Source: a virus (Duplodnaviria; Heunggongvirae; Uroviricota; Caudoviricetes). Taken from it: DNA of 36,646 nucleotides. Where the stretch lies: IMG/VR virus record IMGVR_UViG_2548876701_000024; one strand, 5' to 3'. Each line of letters begins with the position of its first letter. The stretch's first letter is position 1. Shown here piece by piece: positions 4,233-36,359 of the stretch. A model generated the notes under the pieces. That model saw only the letters and a list, made by a program, of their open reading frames with translations. It was not told the origin of the DNA and did not search any database. Made by a program: the position numbers and the translations under genes.

Positions 4233-4531
4233 CAGGGGCTGTGCGTATCCATCAATTAAAAATTGCACCTAAGTATTTCAACGCTGTGGTTGCAGGTCAA
4301 AAGACGGCTGAACTTCGTAAAGACGATCGTGGCTATAAAGTTGGTGATGTTCTTTCTCTTTGCGAATGGAAGCATGGCGTATTTACGGGTAGGGAATGGG
4401 CCGCGGTTATCTCTCATGTGCTTCCGGTTAATGACGTCATGGCAGTTTCAGAACAATGGGTGATGCTATCAATTCGCTCATTAACCCCATTAGAAGCTTT
4501 AGGATATGTTATTGCAGGAGGTGCTGTATGA
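4229..4531 (+). CDS. Hypothetical early protein (100 aa), possibly ASCH/DUF3850-like
   Basis: ATG overlaps upstream stop (ATGA) with GGAGGTG Shine-Dalgarno. Confidence 0.55.
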
Positions 4532-5385
4532 GCACCATCCTGAAATGGGCGGGTAATAAAACCACCATTATGTCCGAACTGAAAAAATACCTTCCTGCTG
4601 GCACGCGACTGGTTGAACCTTTCGCGGGTTCTTGTGCTGTGATGATGGAGACGGATTACCCCAGCTATCTGGTTGCGGATATTAATCCTGATTTAATCAA
4701 CCTCTATAAAAAGGTTGCTGCTGATTGTGAGGCGTTTATATCTCGTGCCAGAGCTTTATTTGAGGAAGCAAACAGAGAGGTGGCTTATTACAACATAAGG
4801 CAGGAGTTTAATTACTCCACTGAAATTACTGATTTCATGAAAGCGGTATATTTTTTGTACCTCAATCGTCATGGTTACCGTGGGCTATGTCGCTATAACA
4901 AGAGCGGGTATTTCAACATTCCCTACGGTAATTATAAAAATCCGTATTTCCCTGAAAAAGAAATTCGCGCATTTGCAGAGAAAGCCCAGCGGGCAACGTT
5001 TATCTGCGCCAGCTTTGATGAAACGCTGGCGATGTTGAAGGCGGGGGATGTGGTGTATTGCGATCCGCCTTATGACGGTACGTTTTCCGGCTATCACACT
5101 GATGGCTTCACTGAAGATGACCAGTATCACCTGGCATCCGTTCTTGAACATCGATCATCTGAAGGTCATCCGGTCATTGTTTCTAACAGTGACACATCCC
5201 TGATCCGTTCGCTGTATCGCAATTTTACTCACCACTACATCAAGGCAAAACGCAGCATCGGCGTGGCAGCTGGTGAGAGTAAATCTGCAACAGAAATCAT
5301 CGCTGTTTCCGGGCCGCGCTGCTGGGTAGGATTTGAACCTTCGCGTGGCGTGGATTGTTCCGTCGTGTACGGAGTGCGTGCATGA
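4528..5385 (+). CDS. dam: DNA adenine methyltransferase (Dam-like, N6-adenine MTase)
   Basis: DPPY catalytic motif ([10 protein letters not shown]) and N-terminal AdoMet-binding region (LKWAGNK...EPFAGS). Confidence 0.85.
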
Positions 5386-7796
5386 GCCATGCTGATATGA
5401 ACAACTGCAGCGGCTTTAACGAGGTCGCCGCAGCATTCTCATGGAACAGCCCGAAAAAGGCCATTAACCCTTATCTGGACCCGGCGGAAGTTGCGCCGGT
5501 TTCTGCGCTTTCAAACCTGATCACTCTGTACGCTGCCGATAACGAGCAGGAACAACTGCGCCGCGAGGCACTGAGTGATCAGGTCTGGGAGCGTTATTTC
5601 TTTAATGAATCCCGTGATCCTGTCCAGCGCGAAATGGAGCAGGATAAGCTAATTAGCCGGGCAAAGCTGGCGCATGAGCAGCAGCGTTTTAATCCAGACA
5701 TGGCCATTCTGGCGGACGTCAACGCCCAGCCTTCCCATATCAGCAAGCCGCTGATGCAACGTATTAAATACTTCAGCAGCCTGGGCAGGCCAAAGGCTTA
5801 TTCCCGCTATTTGCGTGAGACGATTAAGCCATGCTTGGAACGACTGGAGCATGTACGCGACAGTCAGCTATCCACTTCTTTTCGCTTTATGGCAAGCCAT
5901 GAAGGGCTGGACGGCCTGCTGATCCTGCCTGAAATGAGTCAGGATCAGGTGAAACGCCTGTCCACCTTGGTAGCTGCGCATATGAGCATGTGCCTTGATA
6001 CAGCTTGTGGCGATTTGTATGCCACCGATGATGTTACGCCAGAAGAAATCCGCAAGACATGGGAAAAGGTGGCAGCGGAAACCCTGCGTCTGGATGTTAT
6101 CCCGCCTGCGTTTGAGCAACTCCGTCGGAAAAGAAACCGCCGTAAACCCGTGCCTTATGAACTCATTCCGGGTTCGCTGGCGCGTATGTTATGCGCCGAC
6201 TGGTGGTATCGGAAATTATGGAAGATGCGTTGCGAATGGCGGGAAGAGCAGTTGCGTGCTGTTTGCCTGGTCAGCAAAAAAGCATCTCCCTATGTCAGCT
6301 ATGAAGCCGTGATGCATAAACGTGAGCAGCGCCGTAAGTCGCTGGAGTTTTTCCGTTCTCATGAACTGGTGAACGAAGACGGCGACACGCTGGATATGGA
6401 AGACGTGGTAAACGCCAGCAGCAGCAACCCTGCGCATCGCCGCAATGAGATGATGGCCTGTGTTAAAGGTCTGGAGCTTATCGCGGAAATGCGTGGTGAC
6501 TGCGCCGTTTTCTACACCATCACCTGTCCGTCACGTTTCCATTCCACGCTAAATAACGGCAGGCCCAACCCGACCTGGACAAATGCGACGGTAAGACAAA
6601 GCAGTGATTATCTGGTCGGTATGTTTGCTGCATTTCGTAAGGCGATGCACAAAGCCGGATTACGCTGGTATGGCGTGCGGGTGGCTGAGCCGCATCATGA
6701 CGGTACAGTTCACTGGCACCTGTTGTGTTTTATGCGCAAAAAAGATCGCCGCGCCATTACTGCTTTGTTGCGTAAGTTTGCCATTCGTGAAGACCGCGAG
6801 GAGCTGGGTAATAACACGGAACCACGCTTTAAGTCTGAGCTGATAAACCCGCGCAAAGGTACGCCAACAAGCTACATCGCGAAATACATCAGTAAGAACA
6901 TTGACGGGCGTGGTCTGGCTGGCGAGATCAGCAAGGAAACGGGTAAATCCCTGCGTGATAACGCCGAATACGTTAATGCCTGGGCGTCTCTGCATCGTGT
7001 TCAGCAATTCCGCTTCTTTGGCATTCCGGGGCGTCAGGCTTACCGTGAACTGCGATTGCTGGCTGGTCAGGCGGCAAGGCAACAGGGGGACAAAAAAGCA
7101 GGTGCGCCGGTACTGGATAACCCGCGCCTTGATGCCATCCTGGCTGCCGCTGATGCTGGCTGTTTTGCCACCTACATCATGAAGCAGGGCGGCGTACTGG
7201 TTCCCCGCAAATATCACCTCATCAGAACCGCTTATGAAATCAACGAAGAGCCGACCGCCTATGGCGATCACGGTATTCGTGTTTATGGCATCTGGTCACC
7301 CATTGCAGAGGGCAAGATCTGCACTCATGCGGTGAAGTGGAAAATGGTTCGTAAGGCCGTTGACATTCAGGAGGCGGCAGCCGACCAGGGCGCTTGCGCC
7401 CCTTGGACTCGTGGCAATAACTGTCCCCTTGCTGAAAATTTGTACCAACAAGGGAAAGACAAATCAGCTGATGGGGATACCAGAACGGATATCACCCGTA
7501 TGGATGACAAGGAGTTGCACGATTACCTGCACAGTATGAACAAAAAAGAGCGCCGGGAACTGGCTGTAAGGTTACGCCTGGTGAAACCGAAACGGCGTAG
7601 AGACTACAAACAGCGAATTACAGACCATCAACGACAGCAGCTCGTCTATGAACTGAAGTCCAGAGGATTTGATGGCAGCGAGAAAGAGGTCGATTTACTC
7701 CTTCGCGGCGGCAGCATTCCGTCAGGAGCAGGCCTGCGTATCTTCTATCGGAACCAGCGTTTGCAGGAAGATGATAAGTGGCGGAACCTGTATTAA
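5382..7796 (+). CDS. A: Replication initiation endonuclease gpA (rolling-circle, P2 A family)
   Basis: ~800-aa protein in the canonical position after the early operon; start ATG overlaps dam stop (ATGA); fits P2 gpA in size and placement. Confidence 0.85.
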
Positions 7797-7890
7797 TTAC
7801 GCGGGTTAACAATTCGTGCTCTTAATAATACCAGGCATATCAGGCTGATGAACGTAAAAAAACGTTTTACATCAGTAAGATTATTATATG

Positions 7891-7906
7891 CTGTAAATAT
7901 AAACAG
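7891..7906. promoter_or_regulatory. LexA (SOS) box CTGTAAATATAAACAG
   Basis: Perfect CTGT-N8-ACAG SOS-box consensus read directly from sequence, immediately upstream of the tum-like ORFs. Confidence 0.7.
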
Positions 7907-7949
7907 TGGTTATGCATGCAGTATTGCTTGTGGTGTCATAGGAGGAAAG

Positions 7950-8138
7950 ATGCAGGACTATTTTTTGGAGTCTTTGAAGCTCCAGCGCATTGATTTTTTT
8001 CTTAAGCTTGTAGCGGCTAGTGAGTGTAGTGATGAAGAGAAGGGGCTGGCCCTGCAGTGGGTTTCTGAACTAACAGATGAACTCATAGCAAAAATCAGAA
8101 GCCACGAATACAACCGCTCAATGGATGTCATCAGCTGA
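7950..8138 (+). CDS. Small protein, possible N-terminal part of Tum-like antirepressor
   Basis: ATG with AGGAGG Shine-Dalgarno just downstream of the LexA box; the longer listed ORF (from 7848) would span the LexA box and promoter. Confidence 0.5.
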   Translation: MQDYFLESLKLQRIDFFLKLVAASECSDEEKGLALQWVSELTDELIAKIRSHEYNRSMDVIS

Positions 8139-8148
8139 GGGGACTTTT

Positions 8149-8382
8149 ATGCGCATTGAAATAATGATCGATAAAGAGCAGAAGATTAGCCAGTCTACCT
8201 TGGACGCCCTTGAATCCGAGCTTTACCGCAATCTGCGCCCCCTGTATCCCAAAACGGTAATTCGTATCCGTAAAGGTAGCTCTAACGGTGTGGAACTAAC
8301 CGGATTGCAACTGGACGAAGAAAGAAAACAAGTGATGAAAATTATGCAGAAGGTGTGGGAAGACGACAGCTGGCTGCATTAA
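8149..8382 (+). CDS. DinI-family protein (Tum C-terminal-like, SOS-inducible)
   Basis: Begins MRIEIMIDK and ends ...KVWEDDSWLH, paralleling E. coli DinI (MRIEVTIAK...ETWESADDWF); under the LexA box. Confidence 0.75.
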   Translation: MRIEIMIDKEQKISQSTLDALESELYRNLRPLYPKTVIRIRKGSSNGVELTGLQLDEERKQVMKIMQKVWEDDSWLH

Positions 8383-8652
8383 GAAACGTTGCTGGCGTCT
8401 GAACTTGCTTCTGGCGTCAGCAAGGTTGAACAACGAGCTATGCGTGGCGTTAGTGTCAATTTGTTACCTTAACCACTATATATGCCAGGAAATTAACAGT
8501 TCTTAAGAAACCGCTTGCATGATCGAGCGCATTGAACTTAAGTTTAAGTAACGAAATCAACAGATGATATTGTTGTCTAAATTTTAAAGATAATCTGTTG
8601 AGGTTGTAGGCGTCGGAGTGTAGACTTCCGCGCCATGTGAAAAGGGGGAGTT

Positions 8653-8868
8653 ATGTCAAGCATCGCCGCATTTAGCCTGGGTAACCCAGTTGAACGTCTG
8701 GCAAGGGTTCTTAAAGAGAACCAGGACAAACTCAATCTTAGTAAAGATGGTTTTGTGTCCGTAGACTTGTCTAACAAAAGAGCAATGGATGCCATCAAGG
8801 CACAGATGGATAAGCTTGAAGGCATCAAAACGAGCACTGTAAAAGAGAAAACTAATAGAACCAGATAA
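8653..8868 (+). CDS. Hypothetical small hydrophilic protein (71 aa), first gene of a two-gene cargo operon
   Basis: ATG with AAGGGGGAG Shine-Dalgarno; stop overlaps start of next gene (TAATG). Confidence 0.55.
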   Translation: MSSIAAFSLGNPVERLARVLKENQDKLNLSKDGFVSVDLSNKRAMDAIKAQMDKLEGIKTSTVKEKTNRTR

Positions 8869-9710
8869 TGGCAACATTACTTTTAGCAGTGATTTTGGTT
8901 AGTGGTTTTATTTATGTAAACCTATCACTTTCAACAAGATACCGATATAAGCGTTCCAACGGCTGGGACGCTTATTTTTTTGTGGCTGCCTGGGGTATCG
9001 TTTTTTTTCTCCTTGGCGGTTTTTTCACCTTTATTTTGAACGTCAGCGGAGGGTTTCGTTGGCTGGCTAATGCCTTGAATCTAACACCTGACAGTTTTAA
9101 TGGCATGTTGTCTTCATCGAAAGACAAACTTCAAAGAATAAATGAAATCAAACAGATAGCATGGGTTATGATTTCAATTGTCCTCGCTGCGATTTCAGGT
9201 TTTGGAAATAAGTTACGCACATCACGTGGAGATCGTCGCTGGGATGCCTTAGCTAAAGCTGTGGGTAATAACGCTTTCGAATCATTACTCATGGAAGCGT
9301 CCGCAAGACAGTTTCCGATCATAGCAACTCTGTCGTCTCGCAAAATCTATGTTGGTCTTGTTACTTGTCCGGCGTTAGAAAACGGGCTTTCAGAACACCT
9401 TGAACTTCTCCCGATGTTAAGCGGATATCGGGATAAAGATGATCTAACGATTAGTATCACGACTAACTATCACCAACATTATCTTGATAGTGGTGTGATA
9501 AGTGGAATGTCTCGGCTTAATATCGAAGATTTCCGTGTGCTCATACCAAAAGATGAGGTTGAAACAATTTCGTTTTTTGATACTGAGACATATAACAAAT
9601 TTAAAGAAAATGAAGCCAGGGATAGAAAGAGCTGTCGAAAGATTGGTAGTAAAAGTGCATCTTCGCGCAGCAAGCGTGCAGCAGATGCTGAGTCAAATGA
9701 TCGTGCATGA
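8868..9710 (+). CDS. Hypothetical membrane protein (280 aa), three predicted N-terminal TM helices plus soluble C-terminal domain
   Basis: Hydrophobic stretches at about residues 3-20, 35-57 and 96-112; translationally coupled to the upstream ORF; in the gpA-to-cos variable region. Confidence 0.65.
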   Translation: MATLLLAVILVSGFIYVNLSLSTRYRYKRSNGWDAYFFVAAWGIVFFLLGGFFTFILNVSGGFRWLANALNLTPDSFNGMLSSSKDKLQRINEIKQIAWVMISIVLAAISGFGNKLRTSRGDRRWDALAKAVGNNAFESLLMEASARQFPIIATLSSRKIYVGLVTCPALENGLSEHLELLPMLSGYRDKDDLTISITTNYHQHYLDSGVISGMSRLNIEDFRVLIPKDEVETISFFDTETYNKFKENEARDRKSCRKIGSKSASSRSKRAADAESNDRA

Positions 9711-9758
9711 CTATGCTGCATGAGATCGCATGATCGTTTGAGGATCGTTTTTGCTAAG

Positions 9759-9783
9759 GCCCGCCAGAACTGGCGGGCTTTTG
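9759..9783 (+). terminator. Rho-independent terminator
   Basis: GCCCGCCA/TGGCGGGC 8-bp GC stem, 4-nt loop, followed by TTTT. Confidence 0.6.
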
Positions 9784-9827
9784 CGTAGATCATGCACCTG
9801 CATGAAAACTACTACATAAAGTGGGCA

Positions 9828-9846
9828 GGCGTGGCGGGGATACGAG
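9828..9846. other. cos-like cohesive-end site (GGCGTGGCGGGGATACGAG)
   Basis: Close match to the P2 cohesive-end sequence as I recall it (GGCGAGGCGGGGAAAGCAC), with a following GCGCGCTG at the same offset as in P2. Confidence 0.5.
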
Positions 9847-10050
9847 CGCGCGCTGCTATATTGCGTAGAGCCTTTACGTAAGCATTAGTAATGTTGACTC
9901 AGATAGAAAACGAATCGAACATTGAACGCTATTAAATGAATAAATGTGTGAAAGAAGAAACTACTATCAATTGCGTTCTCCTGTTTGAAAAGGTTAAAAT
10001 TTAAAAAATTAAAATTTCATCCTGACAGATTAATTTAAAAGGGCATTCAT

Positions 10051-11346
10051 ATGAATGAAGAATTTCAAAAAACGATTAACTCATTATATAGCTTAAAAAA
10101 AGCTGTTGAAAAAGTGGCTACTGACGAAACTAACCTTTCGGATGTGAAAGGTGTTAAAGCTCCTGCTTTATATCCTGTTGATTTTCTAGATATGATTGGT
10201 TTTATAATAAGAAAAATAGAAAAATATGGTGAAGTGGAATTAACGGATGATGAGATTTCTGAACTGAGTTTTTTACCGATTAGAATTGATAATATTAAAG
10301 AAAATATAGTTCCACATCTCTTTGGAAATAACTCGTCTGATGCTATTTCATCATTTGTTGAAACTATTGCGTTTATTACTCAGTATTTAGATGACATTTT
10401 CTCTTTAGAACGACTGGATAATGCTAATCTTCTGCCGAGAAATATGACAAGAAAAATAAAAAGCATGGAGGCTAGGTTAAATAAAGCAGCCCCTGATATA
10501 GAATCATTGGAAAATAAGATAAATAAAATAAATGATGCTCATGTTGCGGCTGAAAACATTCCTATCGATTTGGAGGAATTACGCTCTTATAATAAGGAAG
10601 CTATGGAGTTAAAAGAAAAGATTAATAAATCAATGTTTAATCTTAGTGTCTTAGAAGAAAAAGGACGTGATATTTTAGATAAAATGACACAACAAAATGT
10701 CGAAGCAGCAAAATATCTCGAAATGTGTGAGCAGGCTATTAGAGCATCGACATCTAAAGGTTTAGCCGGTGCTTTTGAAATCAAGGCTAATAAATTAAAT
10801 AATAGTATCCAACTATGGGTTTTGGGATTGGCAAGTGCACTGGCGACGGGGGGATACGTGGGTTTTGAAAGGCTCAAGGTTTTATCTGATGTGCTAAACA
10901 ATGCAAATCCAAATGCAGTAGTTATTGTTACTCAGTTACTTCTTTCAGTGTTCAGTATAGGAGCTCCGTTATGGTTTGCATGGCTCTCTACAAAACAAAT
11001 AAATCAAAGATTTAAATTGGCAGAGGATTATGCTTTTAAGGCTTCAGTAGCGAAGGCTTACGAAGGCTATCGAAATGAAGCAAGTAAGGTATCTAATGGA
11101 GAATTTGAAAGGCGTTTATTTGATTCGGCATTGAGTCGTCTCGAAGAAGCACCTTTGCGCTTTGTGAAGGATGATGACCATGCAACCCCTTGGAATGAGT
11201 TGTTAAATTCGAAAGCATTCAATAAGTTCCTTGACGCTTCTGTTGAAAATGTGAATTTTGTTAAAGGGATTATTAGCAAGAAAACAGGTGGGGCGAGAAT
11301 GGCTAGTAATGATTCGGCTATTATTCCAGAAAAAAAAGTTGAATGA
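10051..11346 (+). CDS. Hypothetical 431-aa protein; coiled-coil-rich N-terminal region, two predicted TM helices (about residues 253-272 and 288-311), C-terminal soluble domain
   Basis: Long ORF in a strongly AT-rich segment unlike the phage backbone; hydrophobic helices evident in the translation; between cos and portal gene Q. Confidence 0.7.
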   Translation: MNEEFQKTINSLYSLKKAVEKVATDETNLSDVKGVKAPALYPVDFLDMIGFIIRKIEKYGEVELTDDEISELSFLPIRIDNIKENIVPHLFGNNSSDAISSFVETIAFITQYLDDIFSLERLDNANLLPRNMTRKIKSMEARLNKAAPDIESLENKINKINDAHVAAENIPIDLEELRSYNKEAMELKEKINKSMFNLSVLEEKGRDILDKMTQQNVEAAKYLEMCEQAIRASTSKGLAGAFEIKANKLNNSIQLWVLGLASALATGGYVGFERLKVLSDVLNNANPNAVVIVTQLLLSVFSIGAPLWFAWLSTKQINQRFKLAEDYAFKASVAKAYEGYRNEASKVSNGEFERRLFDSALSRLEEAPLRFVKDDDHATPWNELLNSKAFNKFLDASVENVNFVKGIISKKTGGARMASNDSAIIPEKKVE

Positions 11347-11503
11347 CAGAAGGATAATAATTAAGGGATGTCAGTCAACATGGTAATTTCTTGGTGTTGA
11401 TTGTTTTATTTATCAAAAACATTTTAAGTTAGTCTGATCTTCGCGTTCGGTAGGATCAGACTATTAGATTAACGATATGATTTCATTGATTACGAATGGT
11501 TAA

Positions 11504-12574
11504 TTAAGTTGTAGGGATAGTAATCGAAAGATTACTATCTTCAATACCTAGTTTATAAGGCTCAAACATAATTACTTCTTCTCCAAGCCACTCGTTAAGC
11601 TCTGTCATTCGTTTTTGTAGCGGGGTCAACTCATTGCGCACAAAGACTTTACTAGCTTTACCTGCATCTCCAAAACCGCCGATGTTCTGGGGAATTATCC
11701 CCATCATTTGCGGCGGCACACGGTGTGCCGCCATCATGTCGTCCCGGCTCACGTTCTTGATATTCAGAAACTCATCCTTCGCCGCGACTTCTGACAATGG
11801 GATGATCTGAAGCCCGTCTTTTTTACCGTTAGGCGAGTACATAAACAGGTTACGGAAGTTACCAGGACCTTTGGCACTTTTCATCGCGTTGCGGAGGTTG
11901 TTCACATCCTCCTGATTCTGCGCGGCATCGGTCATGTACATGATGAAGCCTGCATGGCTGCCGTTGATGTAATACTTACGGCGGAACAGTGTGGCGGACT
12001 CGTTGAGCAGGGCTGACGGAATGGCAGAAAGATAACCGGGCAGGCCGTAGATCTCCTGGTTGATGTCCGGTTCCATCAGATGAAAAATGCTGCCTTTCGT
12101 GAACTGATACGGCTGCGTAGTCATGCCGTATTGCACAAACCAGTAGGTATCCAGGTCTAATCCGCGTCGGGTGTATTTTGCCAGCGCAGGCTCAAGAGCG
12201 ATGACCTCTCCGAAGCGGTTCGTGCGTTTTTCCAGGTAGGCGTTACCAAAAACCAGATAGTCCTGCACAAAACGCGAAAAAGCCTGCTGGCTGAGCAGCG
12301 GGTGAGGGATGTAGGTGCTGGTCAGAATGTTGCATTTCACTGCGATCGGTGAGCTGTGGTGTACGGCAGCGCGGAATGTTCGCGCCAGTCCGTCAAAACT
12401 TACGGGAGGCTCATACCAGCGATCCGTCTGTACGCATTCCACATAGTCCAGCAGTTCGCGGCGGTCCAGTACAGGAATGGGATCGCCAAAGCTGAATGCT
12501 TCGGCTGAAGTCTGGCTTTTATGCTGGGTCTGGTTCTGTGACGCAGCGCGGTTCTTCTTACTCTTTCCCATCAA
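11504..12574 (-). CDS. Q: Portal protein gpQ
   Basis: Synteny (divergent from O, downstream of P) and size. Confidence 0.88.
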   Translation of the reverse strand: MMGKSKKNRAASQNQTQHKSQTSAEAFSFGDPIPVLDRRELLDYVECVQTDRWYEPPVSFDGLARTFRAAVHHSSPIAVKCNILTSTYIPHPLLSQQAFSRFVQDYLVFGNAYLEKRTNRFGEVIALEPALAKYTRRGLDLDTYWFVQYGMTTQPYQFTKGSIFHLMEPDINQEIYGLPGYLSAIPSALLNESATLFRRKYYINGSHAGFIMYMTDAAQNQEDVNNLRNAMKSAKGPGNFRNLFMYSPNGKKDGLQIIPLSEVAAKDEFLNIKNVSRDDMMAAHRVPPQMMGIIPQNIGGFGDAGKASKVFVRNELTPLQKRMTELNEWLGEEVIMFEPYKLGIEDSNLSITIPTT

Positions 12575-34026: not shown

Positions 34027-35712
34027 TTATCCTAATCCTGGCCATACCATGACGATGATTGTCCCTGCCAGCGTCAGCAGGACGTTGGCGATTGCGTAGG
34101 TGCCCGCATAGCCCAGCGCAGGGATGTTACTGCGAGCTGTATCACTGATGATCTCCATTGCCGGCGCGCAGGTGCGTGCGCCCATCATTGCGCCGAACAA
34201 CAGTGCGCGGTTCATTCGCAATACATAAGCACCGAACAAGAAACAGATAACCACGGGCACAAGACTGACAATTAATCCGGCAATCAACATCTGACCGCCA
34301 ATCGCGCCCAGGCCGTTATTAATACCGCTACCGGCGCTCAGACCAACGCCTGCCATAAACACCATCAAGCCGAACTCTTTCACCATGCTTAATGCACCTT
34401 GCGGAATGTAACCGAAGGTCGGGTGGTTAGCACGCATAAAGCCCAGCATAATTCCGGCGAATAACAACCCGGCAGCGTTCCCCATGCCGAAACTGAATGT
34501 GCTGAACTGGAAGGTGATCATCCCGATCATCAGCCCAATAACAAAGAAGGCGCAAAATGCCAGCAGGTCAGTGACCTGGCTGTGAATCGAGATAAAGCCG
34601 ATGCGATCGGCGATGGTTTTTACGCGACGGGCATCACCGCTGACTTGTAAAACGTCACCTTTGTTAAGCACGACGTTGTCATCTATCGGCATCTCAATCT
34701 GGCTACGAATGACGCGGTTAAGGAAGCAACCGTGATCGGTCAACTTCAGTTGTGCGAGACGTTTACCTACAGCGTTATGGTTTTTAACGACCACTTCTTC
34801 AGTGACGATACGCATGTCGAGAAGGTCACGATCGAAAACTTCTTTACCGTTACGGAAGCTGGGATCGAGTCGGGCATGGGCGTCGGGATAGCCTACCAAC
34901 GCTATTTCATCGCCCATTTGTAGCACGGCATCACCGTCTGGATTTGCCAGAATCCCGTTACGTCGAATACGTTCAATGTAGCAGCCGGTTTGTCGATAAA
35001 TACCCAGTTCACGCAGATTTTTGCCGTCGGTCCAGGCCACCAGCTCCGGGCCGACGCGATAGGCGCGGATCACCGGTAAATAAACCTTACGGTTGGCATC
35101 AGTGTCCAGGCCACGTTCGCGGGCGATTTGCTGGGCGCTGGTCTGTAAGTCCTGATGCTGCAATTTCGGCAAGTAACGCGCACCAACAATCAAACTCACC
35201 AGACCGATTAAATAGGTTAAGGCATACCCGAGGCTCAGATTATCCAGTGCCAGTGAGAGCTGCCTGCTTTCCATGCCGGAATGACGCAGTGTATCGCCAG
35301 CACCGACCAGAACCGGTGTCGACGTCATAGAGCCTGCTAACATACCGGCCGTCAGGCCAATATCCCAGCCAAACAGCTTACCTAACCCTAAGGCGATCAC
35401 CAGCGCACTGCCAACCATCACCAGTGCTAACATTAGGTAATTTTTCCCATCGCGAAAAAAAATGGAAAAAAAGTTCGGTCCGGCTTCGACCCCGACGCAG
35501 AAAATAAACAGCATAAAGCCAAGATTAAGCGCATCGGTGTTAATGCTGAAATGTTGTTGGCCTAATAACAGCGATACGACTAAAACGCCAATGGAATTAC
35601 CCAGTTGGATCGAACCAAGTCGTAACTTTCCGAGACATAGCCCAAGCGCGAGGACCACAAATAATAACAGAATGTAATTCCCATTTAACAATTCGGCGAC
35701 GTTTATATTCAC
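34027..35712 (-). CDS. ybjL: Putative transport protein YbjL (AAE-family transporter)
   Basis: 561-aa multi-TM protein starting [20 protein letters not shown], recognised as E. coli YbjL. Confidence 0.88.
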
Positions 35713-35981
35713 GGAGGCTAACTTCTTGTTTACTAGTAAGCTGTTGAAAGAAATGGTAATTTACGATAATGTTTTTTACCAGAATTCAGGGCGCAGATTC
35801 ATTCAGCGCACCTAAACGATAGTAAAGTAACAATATATTTTACTAGTGTAATCACATTAGGTATCAACGGCTATATGAATTGCGTTGGCCTATATTAGCA
35901 TGGAATGCGAAGCGGCTTTATCTTACTGAACGCCACACTGGCGAAAAATGTGTTCGATAGACGCAGTGTCAGGAGGAACGA

Positions 35982-36359
35982 GTGAAACATAAACAACGTT
36001 GGGCGGGGGCAATCTGCTGTTTTGTCCTCTTCATTGTGGTGTGCCTTTTTCTGGCGACGCACATGAAAGGCGCTTTTCGGGCTGCCGGGCATCCTGAAAT
36101 CGGCTTGCTATTTTTCATTCTTCCTGGAGCAGTCGCCAGCTTCTTTTCACAGCGTAGAGAAGTCCTGAAACCTCTATTTGGCGCAATGCTGGCGGCACCC
36201 TGTTCAATGCTCATTATGCGGCTGTTTTTTTCACCGACGCGCTCATTCTGGCAAGAGCTGGCATGGTTACTAAGCGCGGTGTTCTGGTGTGCGCTGGGGG
36301 CACTGTGTTTCTTATTTATCAGTAGTTTGTTTAAACCACAGCACAGAAAAAATCAGTAA
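35982..36359 (+). CDS. ybjM: Inner membrane protein YbjM
   Basis: 125-aa membrane protein, GTG start after AGGAGG; lies between ybjL and grxA as in E. coli K-12. Confidence 0.7.
   Translation: MKHKQRWAGAICCFVLFIVVCLFLATHMKGAFRAAGHPEIGLLFFILPGAVASFFSQRREVLKPLFGAMLAAPCSMLIMRLFFSPTRSFWQELAWLLSAVFWCALGALCFLFISSLFKPQHRKNQ

Follow-up and report, generated by a model that had tools for sequence, protein, structure and literature searches.

A mobile two-gene cassette of the P2 prophage hotspot, coupling a small protein to a three-helix membrane protein, as a candidate phage-exclusion system

HK97 gp15, P22 SieA and T4 Imm block the entry of phage genomes at the inner membrane. The interval between genes A and Q of P2-like prophages is a reservoir of anti-phage systems (Rousset et al. 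2022). The 36,646-nucleotide (nt) stretch of viral DNA analyzed here (IMG/VR record IMGVR_UViG_2548876701_000024; hereafter the window) is a 186/P2-like prophage in which this interval, the old/tin hotspot of P2, holds a pair of genes lying between gene A with a DinI/Tum-like gene on one side and the portal gene on the other, the slot to which an initial annotation of the sequence had assigned them. The pair encodes a soluble protein of 71 residues and a protein of 280 residues with three predicted transmembrane (TM) helices. Both accessions are present in the P2 hotspot table of Rousset et al. (2022), where they are listed as 'hypothetical', were not tested, and stand beside SieB, PIN_12 or DUF262/DUF1524 genes. 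Our analyses revealed an autonomous, horizontally mobile two-gene 'moron', and we consider it a good candidate for a new phage-exclusion system.

The two open reading frames (ORFs) are present at the coordinates given in Table 1, and the stop/start overlap and Shine-Dalgarno sequence described for them in the initial annotation are borne out. The TAA stop codon of the small gene (8866–8868) and the ATG start codon of the large gene (8868–8870) have one base in common, and a good Shine-Dalgarno sequence, AAAAGGGGGAG, lies directly 5' of the ATG at 8653; its segment at 8642–8650, AAGGGGGAG, is kept as AAGGAGGGG in cassette variants. The large ORF is without a Shine-Dalgarno sequence of its own, consistent with translational coupling. 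An alignment of the upstream regions of seven cassette variants further revealed a candidate promoter, which was not called by the consensus scan and whose TTG and TAnACT elements are kept among diverged cassettes. A 15-nt inverted repeat farther upstream (8557–8601; TCAACAGATGATATT / AAGATAATCTGTTGA) is not conserved in other variants and is therefore probably not an operator. A search of the window for LexA boxes gave chance-level matches only, none of them near the cassette, and no Rfam family matched within 7800–11600. Ratios of nonsynonymous to synonymous substitution rates (dN/dS), calculated against diverged copies, are 0.07–0.2 for the small gene and 0.04–0.06 for the large gene, indicating that both ORFs are real genes under purifying selection. 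Each protein matches one PHROG family of unknown function (9843, E 1e-36, and 3630, E 4e-99).

Comparison with phage 500465-1 delimits the inserted DNA. In that phage, the window segments 7800–8453 and 9703–9853 form contiguous backbone with 7 bp between them, and hence the pair constitutes a 1,249-bp insertion spanning 8454–9702. The G+C content is 41% over both ORFs versus 51% over the window. In 52 of 5,426 complete Escherichia coli genomes at least 80% of the 1.5-kb region is covered, and in a further 1,189 (1,241 in all) the two ends of the region match alone. That the pair might be a core gene of 186-like phages had been set beforehand as a possible refutation; the phage comparison and the genome counts rule this out and identify the pair, as judged from these alignments, as variable cargo. 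The cassette is followed by a backbone spacer that lies directly 3' of dinI in phages without the pair and that looks like a recombination junction for cassette swapping. A hairpin in this spacer (9759–9783; ΔG −25 kcal/mol, z −4.2), missed by the consensus terminator scan because its T run is too short, had been taken for a strong terminator of the operon. The hairpin is real and stable, but given its position inside the conserved spacer it belongs to the phage backbone and is not a cassette-specific terminator. The spacer also carries a GC-rich palindrome (9840–9859), and it is common to about 1,240 E. coli genomes and to Klebsiella and Salmonella P2-like phages. A second variable slot starts at 9856; it is occupied by a gene of 431 codons in the window, and in other phages by a 138-residue protein gene with a TIR gene, a 69-residue protein gene with a bSEFIR gene, or a PIN-domain gene.

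How general is the association of the two genes? A word-indexed search identified 57 clusters of the large protein in Gammaproteobacteria, and an exhaustive profile search yielded 2,910 representatives (50%-identity clusters) at E ≤ 1e-3, 2,027 of them at E ≤ 1e-10; most among the 150 matches listed have 240–300 residues and align over nearly their full length. A relative is encoded on 253 IMG/VR viral contigs. We examined 86 loci, 80 from IMG/VR and six from other look-ups. In all 83 full-length copies, a small ORF ends between −4 and +12 nt from the start of the large one, and no full-length large gene occurs without it. These small ORFs match the profile of the 71-residue protein with E values from 1e-6 to 1e-48, with the exception of a marginal Shewanella copy (E = 3). 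The three remaining loci have a large gene that has decayed or is incomplete (5' truncation, frameshift, contig end) or that could not be delimited; two of these loci retain an intact small gene. The sequence identities of the two partners co-vary (r = 0.96). Co-occurrence in other genomes, on which the proposal of a two-gene system had been made to depend, thus held throughout the full-length copies, and the data argue for an ancient, conserved pairing.

The pair travels widely. About 60 loci occupy the A–Q hotspot of P2-like phages whose gpA proteins are 33–99% identical, and in 21 of the 53 P2-type loci with a visible portal gene the pair is the sole cargo. Neighboring genes in the hotspot vary and encode bSEFIR, a TIR-domain protein, a PIN-domain protein or IetAS, with TIR and bSEFIR genes located 3' of the pair in two prophages. 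The pair also resides at moron sites elsewhere, on at least four further phage backbones, namely between tail genes K and I of lambda-like phages, between the major tail protein and tape measure genes of siphophages, in myophage tail modules, and beside RusA and HNH genes in the lambdoid nin region. Distant pairs (23–30% identity) are found in another P2 hotspot adjoining IetAS, next to prophage repressors or integrases, on an IncC conjugative plasmid, and as two-gene islets between housekeeping genes. At one such locus, the hotspot of an Enterobacter P2-like prophage (L098), IetAS (6801–10262; IetS E 9e-271, IetA E 4e-131) lies directly beside the diverged pair. Only six sequenced phages have a homologue, all of them temperate and all with the genes annotated as hypothetical. 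Such a distribution over phages, plasmids and islets is typical of toxin–antitoxin, abortive-infection and defense modules.

Hydropathy analysis of the 280-residue protein indicates TM segments at residues 1–23, 34–63 and 94–112. With four lysine or arginine residues in loop 1 and six directly after the third segment, the positive-inside rule predicts that the N-terminus faces outward and that the C-terminal domain of about 165 residues, including a basic tail, is cytoplasmic. An AlphaFold2 (AF2) model based on a 29-sequence alignment (predicted local distance difference test (pLDDT) score 77) is consistent with this topology, so that all three predictions concur with the architecture proposed in the initial annotation. 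In the model, three long TM helices are followed by a pair of helices in the cytosol, then by five or six bent strands and finally by a long helix at the C-terminus; the periplasmic loop is poorly predicted and is the most variable region of the alignment. A Foldseek search of the PDB returned almost exclusively Sm/LSm chains (E ~4e-3), and a search of BFVD returned small Sm-like phage proteins. The modeled domain has the N-terminal helix and the five strongly bent strands of a small barrel that define the Sm/LSm fold, and we predict an Sm/LSm-like cytosolic domain. The family profile also weakly matches YaeO/Rof (E 0.28), which is itself Sm-like. The structural search yielded no full-length analogue, and no Pfam LSM match or Sm1/Sm2 motif was found in the window protein and 43 relatives. 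Pfam, NCBIfam and PADLOC returned nothing for either protein of the pair, and sequence searches of the PDB gave nothing significant for the large protein, the large-family profile or the small-protein profile. The initial annotation, which noted no recognizable catalytic motif, can thus be made more specific: the cytosolic domain has a predicted Sm/LSm-like fold, and the family has a remote link to DUF6338 discussed below. Invariant or nearly invariant positions include R29, Y36 and G43 in the hairpin formed by TM1, its loop and TM2, and K159, Y161, G163, P182, S185, G186, Y187, R188, D189, K190, Y201, H204, Y205, F237 and D238 in the barrel, among which Y187, R188, K190, Y201, H204 and Y205 would suit the binding of a nucleotide or nucleic acid.

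The 71-residue protein is soluble and basic (isoelectric point 9.9). Its conserved core, ERLxxxLKxN...I.kDG.vS.dL.N..v..I..Q..kL, precedes a tail that is basic and disordered, and the model shows a helix, a short hairpin, a second helix and this tail. Such a structure would be expected if the protein acquired its fold on binding the large protein. Some distant pairs retain the core as I.I..DG.I.LNL.N..V. In a branch at about 23% identity, the partner at the same position is of similar size (68–93 residues) and carries the motif [VI][VI]GRG[TG].V (loci L098, 5779–5997; L101, 4791–4997; L091, 1131–1412); this different-looking protein is a far-diverged homologue or else a substitute for the usual partner. 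Many copies of the 71-residue protein (such as those at 8653–8868 of the window and 4254–4469 of locus L003) are named 'multidrug ABC transporter ATPase' in RefSeq and UniRef, a name that has no sequence support and looks like a propagated misannotation.

A distinctive feature of the large gene, missed in the initial annotation, is a terminator-like element within its coding sequence. A 12-bp hairpin, ATAAGCGTTCC-AACGG-CTGGGACGCTTAT (8947–8975), runs into a tract of seven T residues (8975–8981). It was the only terminator-like site found by the consensus scan in 7700–11600, has a ΔG of about −16.8 kcal/mol, and combines the G+C-containing stem, the loop of 3–8 nt and the immediate 3' U-tract that characterize rho-independent terminators. 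The element is present, on all phage backbones, in every gene of the clade defined by at least 41% identity (63 genes, 52 unique proteins, 33 distinct 48-nt segments). Among the 52 unique proteins, K28, A35 and F37 are always encoded by AAG, GCT and TTT, respectively, and Y36 is encoded by TAT in 49; R29 uses only CGT or CGC and S30 only TCC or TCT. Codon choice is free at G32, in the loop, and at V39, after the T run. Normalized synonymous-codon entropy is 0.30 in the hairpin columns versus 0.82 in 73 other columns with conserved amino acids (Mann-Whitney p = 1.5e-4). In six distinct sequences a U–A pair is replaced by C–G, through a change of the R29 codon from CGT to CGC together with replacement of aspartate 34 (GAC) by glycine (GGC) or serine (AGC); the nucleotide change that maintains pairing thus also alters the protein. 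Paired cells amount to 94.7%, versus 29–47% when the partner columns are slid. Compared with synonymous recodings, the minimum free energy is near the extreme in four of six copies (z −3.6 in the window; −4.5, −4.9 and −6.2 in the others) and weaker in the remaining two (z −2.9 and −1.8). Taken together, these patterns show selection on the hairpin at the nucleotide level. The element may function as an intrinsic terminator or attenuator, rendering the transcript of the small gene more abundant than the full-length mRNA. Its region would be entered only by ribosomes re-initiating at the TAATG overlap, so that a ribosome following closely may be required for read-through.

Table 1. Positions of the two-gene cassette, its encoded domains and signals, and landmark genes of the prophage in the window
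Feature	Position	Strand	Basis
Small gene, 71 residues, soluble	8653–8868	+	
Large gene, 280 residues, three TM helices	8868–9710	+	
TAATG stop/start overlap	8866–8870	+	sequence
Shine-Dalgarno sequence of small gene, AAGGGGGAG	8642–8650	+	sequence
Promoter-like TTGAGG-17 nt-TAGACT	8598–8626	+	upstream alignment, 7 cassette variants
Hairpin and T7 run inside large gene, codons 27–38	8947–8981	+	consensus scan
TM1, residues 2–23	8871–8936	+	
TM2, residues 34–60	8967–9047	+	
TM3, residues 94–119	9147–9224	+	
Cytosolic Sm/LSm-like barrel, residues ~136–237	9273–9578	+	predicted fold
Basic tail, residues 250–280	9615–9707	+	
Inserted cassette, 1,249 bp, both genes and ~200 bp of own upstream sequence	8454–9702	+	comparison with phage 500465-1
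Backbone spacer between two cargo slots, ~150 bp	9703–9855	+	
Spacer hairpin (9759–9783), followed by TTTT	arms 9753–9767 and 9770–9784	+	
Integrase	1–1209	minus	
CI repressor	1449–2105	minus	
Replication gene A	5355–7796		
DinI/Tum-like gene	8125–8382		
Portal gene	11504–12574	minus	

We propose the following model for the action of the pair. The 280-residue protein would insert into the inner membrane in an N-out, C-in orientation, and its Sm-like barrel would serve as an oligomerization and/or ligand-sensing domain, giving rise to a ring-shaped membrane effector. The 71-residue protein, made first owing to obligatory coupling at the TAATG, may bind the cytosolic face of the effector as a regulator, either as an antitoxin-like brake or as a sensor. 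In the clade with at least 41% identity, the terminator hairpin, positioned 80–115 nt into the large ORF, would keep full-length mRNA scarce. RNA polymerase would probably read through only with a ribosome close behind, fresh from the small ORF, and we propose that, as a consequence, the membrane protein is never made without its partner. The pair would then represent an autonomous, toxin–antitoxin-like, membrane-acting phage-exclusion module of the abortive-infection type, for which toxicity and an anti-phage effect would be expected. We put this forward tentatively, at somewhat less than an even chance of being correct. Context and architecture are what suggest a defense or toxin–antitoxin-like function: the pair is cargo of a validated defense hotspot, beside varied known defense genes; its spread over phages, plasmids and islets is typical of conflict systems; the small gene strictly precedes and is coupled to the large one, which in full length never occurs alone; a membrane protein with a cytosolic beta-barrel could oligomerize or sense a ligand; and the cassette has a built-in device that would limit expression of the membrane subunit.

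Several observations weigh against this proposal. The P2 hotspot holds non-defense cargo as well, including partition systems and toxins, and many of the non-P2 copies lie in tail modules, which is compatible with an entry-blocking role. Because the distant clades lack the terminator-like element, the module can do without it. The regions upstream of the operon yielded no operator conserved among the cassettes, and there is thus no sign of autoregulation of the toxin–antitoxin type. Neither a catalytic nor a pore motif was found in the pair; the Sm fold is matched only at E ~4e-3 by a model with a pLDDT of 77, and the model of the small protein is poor (pLDDT 64). The literature and the defense libraries searched gave no match to either protein, and PADLOC-DB v2.0.0, with content to 2023, gave no significant match to either protein or to 43 relatives. 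A more far-reaching version of the proposal is that the pair is the founding member of a new and widespread family of two-component immunity systems at the membrane, in which the three TM helices and the Sm-like ring form a gated pore or an entry block, the partner of 60–90 residues is in control, and the coupled terminator licenses the membrane subunit, being strong enough to constrain the protein such that the change of D34 to glycine or serine keeps the base pair. We regard this combined version as speculative and, taken as a whole, unlikely.

The tail-module copies lead directly to another reading, superinfection exclusion without suicide, in which the membrane protein and its partner block phage genome entry at the inner membrane and the cell survives. 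The prediction of an inner-membrane protein whose periplasmic loop is its most variable part would agree with such a role, as would the position of the siphophage copies in the slot that holds gp15 in HK97, flanked by the genes for the major tail protein and the tape measure, the location of other copies in myophage tail modules or in the lambda K–I interval, and the restriction of homologues to temperate phages. However, the HK97 gp15 protein compared is the product of a single gene and an unrelated TM protein of 62 residues, and SieA and Imm are likewise single genes. The copies on the IncC plasmid and in chromosomal islets are hard to explain by the entry route of one phage, and a strictly conserved cytosolic partner together with a large cytosolic domain points to sensing or regulation in the cytoplasm. 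We therefore consider superinfection exclusion unlikely, if worth keeping in mind. A function in host physiology or lysogenic conversion, for example as a regulated ion or solute channel or as an envelope-stress factor, strikes us as slightly more doubtful: the three TM helices, the Sm-like beta domain and the similar length recall the plan of MscS, some copies are located among transporter and metabolic genes, and cargo unrelated to defense is found in the hotspot, but neither sequence nor structure matches MscS.

The same gene organization that suggests an abortive-infection module could also arise from pure selfishness, with the pair acting as an addiction (toxin–antitoxin) module that stabilizes its carrier element and confers no phage defense. 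The coupled small-then-large order, the plasmid copy, the scattered islets and the lack of any large gene without a small one are in line with addiction. Yet the searches disclosed neither a fold nor a family of known toxins or antitoxins, no operator is conserved, and the strong concentration of the pair in phage defense hotspots suggests more, which makes addiction alone improbable in our judgment. Lastly, the pair could be part of a larger system together with the downstream gene or genes (the 431-codon gene here; TIR, SEFIR or PIN elsewhere), for example as the membrane effector of a neighboring sensor or signal generator. TIR and bSEFIR genes do follow the pair in two prophages, and the combination of a TM domain with a small beta-barrel is reminiscent of Cap15 and other nucleotide-gated effectors. 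However, the downstream partner, which lies beyond the conserved, terminator-bearing spacer, differs in each arrangement, and the pair is unaccompanied by other cargo at 21 of 53 P2 loci and on its own in all of the non-P2 contexts seen, so that we consider a larger system very improbable.

What would a protective function imply? If the phage-exclusion reading is correct, the pair represents a new defense family with an architecture (a three-TM protein with an Sm-like domain and a coupled micro-protein) that is not in the catalogues searched. Literature searches by accession, PHROG identifier, DUF6338, and the combination of Sm-like with defense found no description of the pair, in agreement with the earlier suggestion of an undescribed system. 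The family extends across Gammaproteobacteria in phages, plasmids and chromosomes, where its members are annotated as 'hypothetical' or, wrongly, as 'multidrug ABC transporter ATPase'. In the intragenic hairpin with its U-tract, nature provides a clean case of an RNA element superimposed on protein-coding sequence, in which an amino acid has changed while a base pair was maintained; it also offers a testable means of ordered, sub-stoichiometric production of a membrane protein. Candidate systems are common in such hotspots; this pair stands out because its family is large and entirely without annotation, its membrane protein has an Sm-like architecture, and its intragenic terminator-like element is under selection. 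Since it is small (1.25 kb) and self-contained, it should be easy to test.

The remainder of the prophage provides further context. The portal and terminase genes are encoded on the minus strand from 11504 on, and the host genes ybjL and ybjM are located at the right end of the window. The region 34027–36359 carries the Pfam domains of an Asp-Al_Ex/TrkA_C permease, which we take to be ybjL from the E. coli map as Pfam shows the domains only, and of YbjM; the right end of the prophage therefore lies before about 34 kb. In 7848–8382, the longest ORFs of a 96-residue protein (phrog_698) and of the 85-residue DinI-like protein overlap, and the true starts of both genes are probably further downstream because the RefSeq versions are shorter (62 and 77 residues, respectively). 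The gene of 431 codons in the second slot (10051–11346) has a G+C content of 35% and belongs to phrog_34659, of unknown function; its product has no significant Pfam match and no PADLOC match, and by eye its N-terminal half looks like a coiled coil, with two hydrophobic helices beyond it at about residues 265–320. Set apart from the pair by the spacer, it is probably an independent accessory or defense gene. At a second P2 cargo site, with tail-fiber genes on one side and the tail-sheath gene on the other, the minus strand encodes a 377-residue Acyl_transf_3 acyltransferase (25189–26322), probably a lysogenic-conversion gene for surface acetylation.

How does the pair relate to described protein families? 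The only Pfam family that recurs among its relatives is DUF6338, an uncharacterized membrane-protein family of unknown function, which was matched by five of 43 distant members at E ≤ 1 (best 1.5e-5) and not by the large protein of the window at that threshold; the one paper that names DUF6338 is unrelated. The large-protein family may thus be a remote relative of DUF6338 at most. MscS, which is heptameric, combines three TM helices with an Sm-like beta domain and is about as long as the large protein. The large protein shares with it an outward-facing N-terminus, three TM helices, a cytosolic Sm-like barrel and a length of about 280 residues, a gross plan that suggests a ring-forming membrane protein. 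Homology to MscS was rejected, as neither the window protein nor its 43 relatives match the Pfam family MS_channel (E ≤ 1), hhalign gave a probability of 0.1% against E. coli MscS, and solved MscS structures gave no full-length structural match. Small beta-barrels that sense a ligand and are attached to or control an effector are also known from Cap15 (S_2TMBeta) and from the Sm-like WYL sensor domains of defense systems, although neither the window protein nor its relatives match S_2TMBeta or WYL in Pfam.

Among phage-encoded systems, HK97 gp15 is likewise a prophage moron encoding an inner-membrane protein, and the siphophage-type pair lies in its slot just upstream of the tape measure gene; with its single TM helix, gp15 is by eye unlike either partner. 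Old, Tin and other systems of the P2 hotspot share with the pair the position between A/dinI and Q, but Old, Tin and the PADLOC models have no homology to it. In the AC1 system 2TM+1TM+TIR (Rst_2TM_1TM_TIR), protein 1 starts with MGKQGKGKG and by eye bears no resemblance to the pair; unlike the linkage that defines AC1, a TIR gene follows the pair at some loci only. The Tai operon of phi80 (orf63/orf64) is non-contiguous, whereas the two genes of the pair are contiguous and co-directional, and the 12 phage records matched by tblastn do not include phi80. The pair is therefore not a member of MscS, the Sm/LSm sequence family, the PADLOC systems, the AC1 system, Tai or gp15. Closest in organization are type II toxin–antitoxin and two-gene abortive-infection systems, in which a small upstream gene overlaps a larger one, is co-inherited with it, and resides on phages, plasmids and islets; the pair matches this organization in its coupling and co-inheritance, but differs from type II systems in having no recognized toxin or antitoxin domain and no conserved operator. 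In our analysis, the pair resembles type II toxin–antitoxin and two-gene abortive-infection systems in gene organization and effectors composed of TM helices and a beta-barrel in architecture, and we rate it among the two-gene, membrane-acting accessory modules of prophage hotspots.

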